The notes under the pieces: model-generated | Database searches by the model: none | Told to the model about the DNA's origin: nothing | The model's input: the letters and a program-made list of their open reading frames with translations, nothing else | Sequence record: OR886155.1 | Length of the DNA stretch: 64,000 nt | Reading direction: 5' to 3' (one strand) | From: Escherichia phage FH3 | Made by a program: the position numbers and the translations under genes | Part shown: positions 50,129 to 53,142 of the stretch, piece by piece | Layout of the letters: each line of letters opens with the position of its first letter | Numbering within the stretch: the first letter of the stretch is position 1

Positions 50129-50690
50129 TCTTATTTAACTGTTCACTTTAGCTTCAAGTGTTTCATTTTCAATACTCAAGTCAATCACTACACCCGTAAG
50201 CTCAACGACTGCTTGGCGAAGGGCATCTTTACCCATAGAGTGTACTTGAGATAAGAAGAAAGCTTTACCTTCTTCCGTGGATATGGTTTCTTTCAGTTCA
50301 GTTGCAGTCATTCTTTTCCTCTCTCTCTTTCCATAATTCAGCCAGTTCTAAATAATATTGTGCTTCATCAGCACGTCCTTGTTCACTACAGATGGCGCTT
50401 TGACGATAACACCAATCCGATGGCATCTCTTCCACTTCAATCTCCTTGTTACGAACCAATCAATAAGAATAGTTCATTCGTCTTATTTGTTCACTCTGCC
50501 AATGCAGGTATCTCTAATCTCTTAATTGTGAATGCTTTGTCTGGAAACTTTCGAACTAGCTCCGCTGCTTTGCTAATTGCTAAGTTCTCTGTTTCAAAGA
50601 TACAGAATTGACTATTCAGCGCGGTAATAGTGGAGCCACCACTGAAGATGGCCCAAGATTTATAATAATCACGAACACTCATAACCCACC

Positions 50691-50843
50691 TTAGTGCGTA
50701 TGCATCCAGTTAAGTCCAATCTGACAATCAGATGCCAGAGGACATTCCATGTTCAAGTACTCACCAGCTTTCTTAACGCAAAGCTCAGTGTGCTCTTTGA
50801 GTTTCTGTACATCGTTACGATTAACTGAGAACTGGCCCTCATC
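50691..50843 (-). CDS. DNA polymerase (family A), exon 2
   Basis: Encodes DEGQFSV...MECPLASDCQIGLNWMHTH*, matching the Pol A C-terminus after motif C; a stop lies immediately upstream in frame, so it cannot be an independent gene. Confidence 0.7.
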   Translation of the reverse strand, partial: DEGQFSVNRNDVQKLKEHTELCVKKAGEYLNMECPLASDCQIGLNWMHTH

Positions 50844-51441
50844 CATTTATGTTATTCCCAAATTACTTCGGGTATCGGACTATATCATAACAGCATAGCT
50901 AATTTGCTGTTGTTGGCGCTTCGAGGGTTTCCCTGTTAACCCCCTACTCCCGCAGGATAGTCTCTACACTTTCCACTTTCGAATCCATCTACAAGCGATT
51001 CCAAAGCTCACACCAAACCTTTCTGCAAGAGCAACACCAGTGCATTCATTGTTAAGCCAGAACTCTTTAGCAGCATTCTGTCTTTCTCTGTTTCTGCCAG
51101 TGTTTGACTCGATAGCATGTGCACTACCTTCTAAGATTTCTAGATGGTCAGTATTGCAACAAGCTCTATTCTTGCATTTATGGTTAACTTCATAACCGTC
51201 AGGGATGTTTCCAAATTTCTCTTCCATGACGTATCTGTGATACATGACCCATTTGCCATTTATCATTTTTCGAAAGTAACCATCTTTATTTAGTTTGTGT
51301 GAGATAGGGATGATACATCCTGTGCTAGTTGTTTCTAGCACTAGATCTTTCTTAGCCATATCACCTCCTAATAGCTTAGCTCGGTATTGCCCTCAACTTA
51401 ATGGTCGGGTTTCACCGAGTTCACCAACTTTTACATGCACA
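50844..51441 (-). mobile_element. group I intron in the DNA polymerase gene, carrying an HNH ORF
   Basis: 5' exon ends ...AUGCAU; intron nt 11-16 GUGCAU can form P1 with a U-G pair at the splice site; GACUA (50958-50963) and GAUAUAGUCC (50877-50886) match R/S (P7) elements; last intron nt is G; ligation restores ...IDMH-DEGQ... Confidence 0.7.
50964..51359 (-). CDS. intron-encoded HNH homing endonuclease
   Basis: YEVNHKCKNRACCNTDHLE motif; own RBS AGGAGGTGAT; entirely inside the predicted intron. Confidence 0.7.
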   Translation of the reverse strand: MAKKDLVLETTSTGCIIPISHKLNKDGYFRKMINGKWVMYHRYVMEEKFGNIPDGYEVNHKCKNRACCNTDHLEILEGSAHAIESNTGRNRERQNAAKEFWLNNECTGVALAERFGVSFGIACRWIRKWKV

Positions 51442-53142
51442 ATGAAGTTTATGCATATCAATTACCTTAGCACAACGAACCTTATCTTTCTCAATCCACT
51501 TGTTAAGGAACATCATAGCATATTTCATAACAACAGCACCAGCACATTGCAGGAGTGTGTTAAGGGCTTTATGAACCATAACTTTACCAGTGGCATCTCG
51601 TCTCATTGTAATCTTACGACCATCAACACCAATCAAGTATCCTTGAGCAGCTTTCTCTGTCATACGATCAATGAGGATTGCAATACATGGGTTCTCTGCC
51701 AAGAAACGTGCTCGCATCACTGAACCTTCGTCAGCCCCACCACCTACAATTGAACCAAGCTTAGCATCGCCAGCACCGTAGTTGAATGCATAGATAAACG
51801 TTTTAGCGTTGTCACGAGTAGGAAGACCAGCAAGTTTCTGGTTGTGGGAGTGGATATCACCTTCAAGGAGAATATCACGATACATAATAGCAGAAGCTAA
51901 ACCACGTTCTGCCAGAGCTTTCTTAGCTGGGTTGTTCTCTTCAATTGCCTCAGCAAGCATATCCCTACACTCTTTAATGAGGTAGTGAGCGAGCATACGA
52001 AGTTCAAGCCCAGAACCATCATACCCTAAGAATACTTCTTTACCAGCGGGTATGTAATATTTGTAAGCACCTACAGGTTTGTCTTTCTTCCCCGGTTTAC
52101 CTTTCTCATAAATTACGTTAGTACCTTTTCGTATATAACAACCATCAGGAACAACGTTAGTAATAACGAAAGGACGAGAATGATCACTGTCTGAGTTATA
52201 GTCAGACTCAAACAAACTGCGACACTCGTGACCAAACAAACCACGGGAGGGAATATTAACCACGATACGATGTTTGAATCGAAAAGTCGGCGTAGCGCAG
52301 CTGTTAGCTTCTGCCGAAAGTTTACCATCTTCGCGTTCCTTTGCTATGAGTCCACTGATAAGACCTAGCCTGTGAGCCGCTACAACGCGTCTCTTAAGCA
52401 AACTTCCGACACTCCCTAGCTCACCCCCTAACCCTTCTTCAAGAGTCTCCTCGAGGTTTGTAGGAGCTGTAGGCCACTTGTTTGAAGTGGCTAGTGCTTT
52501 CTTAATCTCATCAAACGTTACAGGATTACGTCGATTCGGGTTTAATCCCAAACCAAACACGTAAGCCTTCATATAGTTCTTAGTTTTAAACCTAAAATGC
52601 TTTTCTAAGAACTTCTTAATATCAGCGTCAACCATCTCGGCTGTCTGCTTCTGCTTAGCATTGCCTCGCATCCAAGCAGTATACCATGCTTGGTATGTTC
52701 CATACTTTCGCATGTCTTTCTTAATTTCGAAAGTATTCCAAGGTTTCTTAGATACGTTAAACTCTGGAGGAAGAAAGCCCTCATCCATAAGAGCTTCTTT
52801 AACTCGTGCATCTTTCGATGGGTCAAAGTCTACGTATTCGACACAGGTGAAAGCTCCACCAATATCTTCTCTCTTCAGCCCAACCCTATCACAATAGGCT
52901 TGAGGCCACTTCTGTAAAGCTCCAGACTTCTTAAACGGCTTCATGTAAGTAGAGCCATCTAATCTCATCTTAGGTAAGAGAGGAATCAACTCTCTGTCAA
53001 TATTAACAATAATCTCTTTAAGGAGGTGAATATACCACCGAGCATTTCTTCGGTTGAAACTCACTCCGTGCTTTGCTTGCTTAGAGATTATATCAGCGAC
53101 AGTCATCTCTGTCAAAAATGGAAGAGCGTCCGGGTTGCTCAC
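51442..53142 (-). CDS. DNA polymerase (family A), exon 1
   Basis: Motif A GYDGSGLELRMLAHY and motif B RDNAKTFIYAFNYGAGDAKLG present; motif C absent from this ORF; the last 9 codons of the listed ORF are intron sequence. Confidence 0.85.

Follow-up and report, generated by a model that had tools for sequence, protein, structure and literature searches.

How can a phage obtain a complete DNA polymerase from a gene whose reading frame closes before motif C? The question is raised by a locus in a stretch of 64,000 nucleotides (nt) from Escherichia phage FH3 (sequence record OR886155.1; this whole stretch is referred to as the window), where, on the minus strand, the open reading frame (ORF) 53142-51421 (573 aa, GTG start) encodes a family A DNA polymerase (Pol A). 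Its match to Pfam DNA_pol_A (E=7e-14) spans profile positions 143-334 of 381, so that the C-terminal part is not reached, and the frame ends in the nine codons KLHCACKSW followed by TGA (51423-51421). A second minus-strand frame of 51 codons, ORF 50846-50691, lies downstream and directly follows an in-frame TAA; it reads M-DEGQFSV...IGLNWMHTH and can be aligned to T7 DNA polymerase. An earlier note, made from the sequence alone, had described this pair of frames, one a Pol A ORF ending in nine non-polymerase codons and the other a Pol A C-terminus with a stop before its Met, and both descriptions proved accurate. We conclude, with a probability of roughly 0.93, that the polymerase gene is interrupted at H|DE of motif C by a mobile, IA2-type group I intron that carries an HNH gene.

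Removal of 607 nt restores motif C

Exon 1 includes motif A (GYDGSGLELRMLAH) and motif B (RDNAKTFIYAFNYGAG), and its last codon, CAU, specifies the His of motif C. When ...ATGCAT (to 51451) is joined to GATGAG (from 50843), as the earlier note had proposed, the frame continues as ...IDM-H|DE-GQF, and 564 plus 50 codons give a protein of 614 aa. The joined protein aligns to the uninterrupted Ptacy1479 coding sequence (CDS; 614 codons) with zero gaps and six substitutions; it is also gapless against the polymerase of the intron-less phage SkaterBoy (SkaterBoy_Bas90), and its alignment with T7 DNA polymerase begins at residue 421 and extends through the C-terminal His, with idMHDEgQ set against awVHDEiQ at the junction. 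Motifs A, B and C occur in a single polypeptide only after the join: A and B are located in exon 1, HDE spans the junction, and a contiguous motif C was looked for elsewhere and none was found. The exonucleases of Kuraviruses are encoded apart from the polymerase (PMC9965538), and the polymerase of this phage group is therefore short.

The ends of the insert were established by comparison with relatives. In its polymerase region the window, which derives from a phiEco32-like E. coli phage (Kuravirus, Gordonclarkvirinae), shares 99.4% identity with Escherichia phage 1-6af and matches 97 phiEco32-like records (Kuravirus and relatives, Gordonclarkvirinae), most of which cover just 79% of the query, the insert being missing. 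A stretch of 607 nt is precisely missing from the intron-less Kuraviruses, whose gene is intact at 614 codons. The DNA flanks are alike in the window and in Ptacy1479 (...ATTGATATGCAT|GATGAGGGCCA...), and the intron-less allele around the insertion site, in Ptacy1479 or SkaterBoy, reads ATTGATATGCA(T/C)GATGA; because the bases flanking the two junctions differ, the excision boundary is unambiguous. The intron length of 598 nt given by the earlier note is corrected to 607 nt (51450-50844), and of the junction it had placed at 50843/51442, the start of exon 2 at 50843 stands, whereas the last base of exon 1 is 51451, not 51442.

Inserts at the same codon boundary in other phages

A sensitive BLAST search with the 607-nt intron returned 63 phage records with a homologous insert. 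Ten of the 63 are Gordonclarkvirinae records from seven phages (1-6af, 1-6bf, PE006, pEC-N1203-2Af.1, PAS59, ECBP2 and SU7, the last also vB_EcoP_SU7), in which the insert occupies the same site and is 85-100% identical overall, with ribozyme parts at 96-100%. T7-like Autographiviridae copies, carried by 13a, K1F, VSG32, JeanTinguely and several Kayfunavirus and Teseptimavirus genomes, are 64-70% identical over 83-99% of the intron length; other carriers include Vibrio phage Vp_R1 (Grimontviridae), Edwardsiella and Klebsiella podophages and Aeromonas phage PT2. In each copy inspected (among them 13a, K1F, VSG32, Vp_R1, DT115P1, PT2 and RCIP0053) the insert separates the codons for His and Asp in ...(V/M)H|DE.... 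The copies begin (A/U)(A/G)AC after GCAU and end in G before GA(U/C)GA.

Conservation within the Gordonclarkvirinae is unevenly distributed along the locus. Between the window and ECBP2, the ribozyme segments (91 + 120 nt) are 96-97% identical, the HNH ORF 80% and the flanking exons 72-78%; between the window and PAS59, the corresponding values are 98-100%, 88% and 73-78%. From a functional ribozyme one would expect non-coding sequence to be better conserved than the coding sequence next to it, as is seen here; part of this conservation could be due to lateral spread of the intron in recent times, but such spread alone would not raise the ribozyme above the ORF that it encloses.

The class was described as known in the earlier note, and same-site introns are indeed annotated in 13a and K1F. 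In Klenow numbering, position 881 of E. coli DNA polymerase I (Pol I) is the His of Q-V-H-D-E. The PhiI/W31 introns, which are IA2 introns in gene 5 of T7-like phages and encode the HNH endonuclease I-TslI (Bonocora and Shub 2004, J Bacteriol 186:8153, as described in PMC3428280), are placed at Pol I position 881 with the HNH gene in P6a (PMC3428280); the window intron is therefore at the same site. The likeness covers the Pol A host gene, insertion at site 881 (His|Asp of motif C), the succession P7.1-GUA-P7.2 and, in P6a, an HNH ORF preceded by a ribosome-binding site (RBS) of its own. Splicing has been demonstrated experimentally for the PhiI/W31 and Pf-WMP3 introns (PMC3428280).

In contrast to the T7-like introns, the window intron resides in a host of another family (Kuravirus/Gordonclarkvirinae), in the gene for a 614-aa polymerase without exonuclease domain; its P7.2 is shortened and its P5 lengthened, its P1 guide fits AUGCAU rather than GUGCAU, and it ends in AUG rather than AAG. 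The introns of the Bacillus phages SPO1, SP82 and Bastille (I-HmuI, I-HmuII, I-BasI), of Pf-WMP3 (I-PfoP3I) and of Xanthomonas phage phiL7 are likewise IA2, HNH-bearing and in Pol A genes, and also lie within highly conserved coding sequence, but their sites correspond to Pol I 674 and 676, in the fingers, as opposed to 881 in motif C (PMC3428280). The Pf-WMP3 intron is without P2 and has an ORF that starts in P6a (PMC3428280), whereas the ORF of the SPO1 intron is in P8 (PMC3073962); BLAST with the 607-nt intron detected no DNA similarity to the introns of SPO1/SP82/Bastille, Pf-WMP3 or phiL7.

Secondary structure of the intron RNA

In order to model the RNA, 11 non-identical copies were aligned (MAFFT) with the ORF cut out. 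RNAalifold, a program that does not represent pseudoknots, independently gives P1 (exon included), P3, P4, P5, P6/P6a, P8 and P9; when the P7 pseudoknot, P7.1, P7.2 and P10 are added, 97.7% of 647 cells in the full model are in standard pairs, compared with 36-44% when the 3' partner columns are slid by 1-3. Changes on both sides are found in 21 of 60 pairs, a count attained in none of 500 shuffles, and the covariation score is 0.341 versus 0.03-0.08 when slid. Six non-paired cells in the inner P7.2 columns reflect an alignment problem, in that the Kuravirus and T7-like rows were not aligned by MAFFT over the truncated helix. The minimum free energy (MFE) fold of the window's own ORF-deleted intron contains P1, P3, P4, P5, P7.1, P7.2, P8 and P9 (z=-2.98). 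The P3-P9 fold that the earlier note had named as a check is present within this P1-P10 model.

At the 5' splice site, the pairing that the earlier note had suggested between the exon-final U and a G of GUGCAU is U51451.G51440, a wobble pair that is invariant in all 11 sequences. P1 is paired in 11/11, its pair 3/27 covaries (A-U in 4 sequences, G-C in 7), and the helix changes together with the exon, being AUGCAU/GUGCAU in one form and GUGCAU/GUGCAC in the other, as an internal guide sequence must do. P10 joins UUCAUU (51446-51441, just 5' of the guide) to the exon 2 sequence GAUGAG (50843-50838), with 89% of cells paired and double changes in 2 pairs, and the terminal G, also anticipated, is G50844 and is invariant across the aligned copies.

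In the intron-less SkaterBoy_Bas90, polymerase codon 564 is the His codon CAC, as opposed to CAU in the window (51453-51451), and therefore lacks the U that the U.G wobble at the splice site requires; the difference may be selectively neutral, or it may make this allele a poorer host for the intron.

Of all the helices, P3 stands out most clearly: its 7 bp are 100% paired in the 11 sequences, 5 of them show compensatory changes, and it occurs as GUUGGUG/CGCCAAC in the window, as UCUGGUG/CGCCAGA in T7-like copies and as CUCAUUG/CGGUGAG in Vp_R1. The TGA that ends the read-through tail overlaps its 5' strand. P2 is absent from the window intron, in which GUAAAA alone separates P1 and P3, and also from the T7-like copies compared (13a, K1F, VSG32 and others); among the compared copies only DT115P1 and RCIP0053 have a P2-like hairpin at this place. 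Compensatory support was obtained for P3, P5, P6, P8 and P9, with several pair types seen in P8 and in P9. P7, for which the earlier note had pointed to GACUA, is formed by GACUA/UAGUC; it is fully paired and invariant, and both strands are placed by Rfam. Subgroup IA2 is defined by P7.1 and P7.2 joined by G-U-A (PMC3428280), and the window intron has P7.1-GUA-P7.2 between P7 and P3' (Table 1).

The strands of P6/P6a lie on either side of the ORF, the 5' strands at 51379-51372 and the 3' strands at 50975-50969 (RNAalifold and pair counts). In the RNAalifold register, CU/AG plus CUA/UGG, these are paired in all 11 sequences, with covariation. A hand model of P6 that ends at the stop codon (CUAAGCU/AGUGUAG) was discarded; one of its pairs is broken in seven T7-like sequences. 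P6/P6a, being short, is the least certain helix, and the location of the ORF in P6a is moderately secure.

Table 1. Features of the polymerase locus in the window, in order of transcription; helices refer to the modelled intron RNA.
Feature	Positions	Strand	Sequence or description	Basis
Exon 1, family A DNA polymerase	51451..53142	minus	564 codons, GTG start at 53142	Pfam DNA_pol_A, gapless Ptacy1479 alignment, T7 alignment
Probable group I intron, subgroup IA2 type	50844..51450	minus	607 nt; begins AAAC, terminal G at 50844	
Read-through tail	51421..51450	minus	KLHCACKSW (9 codons)	exon 1 frame running on into the intron
P1	51435..51456	minus	exon AUGCAU (51456-51451) with guide GUGCAU (51440-51435)	
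P3, 5' strand	51422..51428	minus	GUUGGUG; partner CGCCAAC 50918-50912	
P4	within 51380..51419	minus	CUCGGUG 51419-51413 / UACCGAG 51386-51380	RNAalifold, covariation model, MFE
P5	inside P4	minus	CCC 51409-51407 / GGG 51392-51390, plus extension	RNAalifold, covariation model, MFE
Predicted HNH homing endonuclease gene	50964..51359	minus	131 aa, in P6/P6a loop	Pfam HNH_3
3' catalytic core	50878..50962	minus		Rfam alignment, covariation (P8, P3), MFE (P7.1, P7.2)
P7, 5' strand	50962-50958	minus	GACUA; partner UAGUC	
P7.1	50957-50948	minus	UCC-UGCG-GGA	MFE fold
GUA linker	50947-50945	minus		invariant in 11 sequences
P7.2	50944-50923	minus	GGGGGUU/AACCCUC	window's own MFE fold
P3, 3' strand	50918-50912	minus		Rfam alignment, covariation
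P8	50911-50889	minus	AACAGCA/UGCUGUU	covariation
J8/7 and P7, 3' strand	50886-50877	minus	GAUAUAGUCC	Rfam alignment
P9 hairpin	50857..50872	minus	CCCGAA-GUAA-UUUGGG, GNRA tetraloop	6 bp, 100% paired, compensatory changes in 4 pairs
Exon 2	50691..50843	minus	50 codons + TAA; opens with Asp-Glu of motif C (DEGQF...), closes ...NWMHTH	

Several points weigh against the assignment to group I. The structure was partly derived from the same 11 sequences on which it was scored, and the deletion of the ORF makes the folded RNA a construct; this shared derivation inflates the proportion of cells paired, whereas the excess of compensatory changes over the shuffles is not inflated by it. The register of P6/P6a differs between the first hand model and RNAalifold, and P7, P7.1 and most of P4 are invariant and fully paired, so that covariation is uninformative there. 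The PhiI/W31 introns (AY769989, AY769990) enter the comparison through their published description (PMC3428280), and the sequence homology is to 13a, K1F and others. Finally, the group I model search proposed in the earlier note did produce a match, of the Rfam model Intron_gpI (RF00028) at 51036-50856 on the minus strand (E=3e-4), but at 26.2 bits, so that the gathering score of 50 bits is not reached and a scan at the gathering threshold gives no group I match at the intron; moreover, just the 3' half of the intron was aligned, with P3 to P6 misplaced inside the HNH ORF.

To put this score in context, homologous loci were scanned with RF00028 against the same gathering score. Copies in 13a and K1F, whose annotation already gives gene 5 as a joined CDS, scored 37.9 and 35.7 bits, respectively, and those in Vp_R1, DT115P1 and ECBP2 scored 34.9, 31.8 and 27.2 bits, whereas an ORF-less intron in the ribonucleotide reductase (RNR) gene of a Rhizobium phage reached 83.6 bits. 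Every ORF-bearing copy thus falls under 50 bits, and a sub-threshold score is therefore normal here and weak evidence against membership; the score is lowered by the ORF of about 400 nt in P6a together with the IA2 extras. The Rfam alignment rightly sets AGACUA (J6/7-P7), the 3' strand of P3, P8, GAUAUAGUCC (J8/7-P7') and P9; the P3 5' strand and the 17-nt 'P4-P6' that it assigns at the end of the HNH ORF were rejected, the true P3-P6 lying upstream of the ORF.

An arrangement without RNA splicing would be a genuinely split polymerase, in which a free-standing HNH gene had inserted and polypeptides of 573 aa and 51 aa assemble. This would agree with the three separate CDSs given by gene callers and by GenBank records of close relatives, and with the fact that exonuclease functions are already encoded separately in this phage group (PMC9965538). 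It could also draw on the last three bases of the insert (50844-50846, minus strand), an AUG in frame with exon 2 that supplies the start of the exon 2 ORF and that leads gene callers to predict an ORF of 51 aa, labelled 'DNA polymerase-like' or hypothetical; this AUG is shared by the remaining Gordonclarkvirinae copies and by that of Edwardsiella phage DT115P1. The T7-like inserts, however, which are annotated introns, end AAG|GAU, leaving exon 2 without a start codon in frame, and in the window the nearest Shine-Dalgarno-like bases before the exon 2 ATG (GGGA) sit in the 3' strand of P9. The break would, in addition, separate the His from the catalytic Asp of motif C, and the non-coding flanks of the HNH gene are a covariation-supported group I core, better conserved than the surrounding coding sequence. 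Taken together, these observations make a split polymerase very unlikely.

The low Rfam score, the P7.2 shorter than in T7-like copies and the missing P2 would also suit a decayed intron that no longer splices, leaving a polymerase pseudogene, with replication supported otherwise or the genome defective. We consider this highly improbable: P2 is also missing from the T7-like copies and from Pf-WMP3, which splices (PMC3428280), the core helices and conserved junctions are all intact and are 96-100% conserved among near-identical, independent plaque-forming isolates (1-6af and 1-6bf, 99.4%; also PE006, PAS59, ECBP2 and SU7), and the HNH ORF and both exons are intact. An intein, which was considered solely because a catalytic motif is a typical intein site too, a group II intron or an assembly artefact has next to no probability, since there is no continuous in-frame ORF (a stop follows after 9 codons and another stands just before exon 2), Rfam scans gave no match over the insert to group II or to any family other than Intron_gpI, and the insert recurs in several phages whose genomes were sequenced independently.

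Proposed splicing, the HNH gene and the possible spread of the element

On the reading that we favor, a group I intron within the polymerase gene, the pre-mRNA would be transcribed through the intron, and the intron RNA would fold such that the guide GUGCAU and the exon 1 sequence AUGCAU form P1 beside a P3-P9 core with a P3/P7 pseudoknot and a guanosine-binding P7. An external guanosine would attack the 5' splice site, and the freed 3'-OH of exon 1 would then attack after the terminal G (50844), with P10 holding exon 2; the product would be an mRNA for the 614-aa polymerase in which motif C is intact. Unspliced RNA would yield the truncated 573-aa product only, with the catalytic Asp missing. 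By analogy with related introns, we infer that self-splicing is initiated by guanosine and that a single 614-aa polymerase is made.

The internal HNH ORF with its own RBS, reported in the earlier note at 50964-51359, was recovered as such: Pfam HNH_3 matches residues 40-76 (E=7e-12; 45.2 bits versus a cutoff of 24.8), and an AGGAGG (51369-51364) precedes the ATG by 5 nt (GUGAU). The final 12 nt of the ORF are the 3' strands of P6a and P6, and a lone A (J6/7) stands between its UAG stop and P7. Because the end of the ORF forms these strands and the stop abuts P7, translation of the endonuclease and folding of the ribozyme are probably mutually exclusive on one transcript. Identity between the HNH protein of the window and the proteins encoded in the introns of 13a, K1F, VSG32 and Vp_R1 amounts to 54-61% (54-60% for the T7-like copies); a PDB sequence search with the window protein matched no solved structure. 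In Aeromonas phage PT2 (locus L012, about 583-1003) the annotation starts the intron HNH gene at an internal Met and so gives 93 aa; the open frame begins about 46 codons upstream (MARKQLITFETTENGC...) and has an insertion relative to the other copies.

Free-standing HNH genes are found in intron-less T7-like phages, namely T3 (NC_003298, 15186-15455, gene 5.3), phiYeO3-12 (AJ251805, 15921-16226) and relatives. Their products share 38-46% identity with the N-terminal 64-76% of the window HNH protein, and the genes lie immediately downstream of DNA polymerase gene 5, i.e. beside the same target gene; they differ in that they are outside introns, are shorter and are without the C-terminal part. 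A free-standing HNH gene beside gene 5 is reportedly treated by Bonocora and Shub (2009) as a route to mobile introns.

The predicted HNH enzyme most likely acts on polymerase alleles without the intron in co-infecting phages, introducing a nick or a cut close to the insertion site, after which recombinational repair would copy the intron in (homing); both the endonuclease activity and homing are put forward by analogy. Homing would explain why the element is patchily distributed among Kuraviruses and why several phage families have it at one and the same codon boundary. Of the 97 Gordonclarkvirinae records, 10 carry it, and very close relatives with 97-98% identical flanks lack it. Even in its most conserved C-terminal 190 aa, the host polymerase is about 33-35% identical between Kuravirus and T7-like phages; across the phage families the HNH proteins, at the identities given above, are better conserved than this, and the ribozyme core is conserved more strongly again. 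The pattern fits horizontal spread by homing into the conserved coding sequence of motif C. Whether a single lineage of intron plus HNH gene has been moving between unrelated phage families by homing into the conserved His-Asp-Glu codons of family A polymerases is, in our judgment, an evenly balanced proposition. The Kuravirus copy would then be a host-adapted, minimized version, with a guide retuned to AUGCAU, no P2, a truncated P7.2 and a ribozyme of about 211 nt outside the ORF.

Related ribozyme sequence was also encountered in other genes. Rhizobium phage RHph_N3_13 (MN988507; locus L016) contains a clear group I intron at 1427-1676 that splits its RNR gene, which is annotated as two 'partial' CDSs with a 'Srd decoy of host sigma factor' ORF between the halves; the 5' core of this intron is 82% identical over 61 nt to positions 17-77 of the window intron. 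The P3-P5 core of the window intron is also matched over about 60 nt (80-83% identity) in Aeromonas phages phiA047 and PhAER-3 and in the primase/helicase of Salmonella phage PVP-SE1 (9225-9284); other genes may thus contain additional group I introns that lack annotation.

Directly downstream of exon 2, a small ORF (50491-50682, minus strand) matches Pfam T4_Y13H (E=7.8e-22), and some relatives (SkaterBoy and others) have an additional 121-aa ORF between the T4_Y13H ORF and the polymerase gene. The 366-nt ORF beside the SkaterBoy polymerase was considered as a free-standing homing endonuclease, and Pfam gave no match. Elsewhere in the window, the Rfam tRNA model matches 841-919 on the minus strand (29.7 bits versus a gathering score of 29; E=0.038), and ARAGORN reports no tRNA in the window.

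Both the class and the specific intron family are already known, from T7-like PhiI/W31 (2004) and from the annotated introns of 13a, K1F and JeanTinguely, and no new mechanism is revealed. In the GenBank annotations examined, however, the intron is not recorded for Kuravirus/Suseptimavirus phages or for Vp_R1, and the pieces appear as separate or hypothetical genes; the Gordonclarkvirinae carrier records have neither an annotated intron nor a joined CDS, and use the labels 'DNA polymerase', 'homing endonuclease', 'DNA polymerase-like protein' and 'hypothetical protein'. A literature search for an intron in phiEco32-like/Kuravirus phages returned nothing relevant, the papers on SU7 and on the Kuravirus expansion being silent on it.

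The polymerase of these therapeutic-candidate coliphages is thus mis-annotated in GenBank as two or three genes, often 'hypothetical', where the proper annotation is a joined 614-aa CDS plus an intron-encoded HNH gene. With this finding, the range of the polymerase intron of T7-like PhiI/W31 grows by two further phage families, in which it occupies exactly the same codon boundary of a catalytic motif, and naturally diverged copies with rich covariation are now assembled. Close intron-plus and intron-minus Kuraviruses allow tests of homing, of marker co-conversion and of the cost of the intron, and, if transfer across families is recent and ongoing, the element would be a natural system in which to follow the co-adaptation of endonuclease and ribozyme to divergent target genes.

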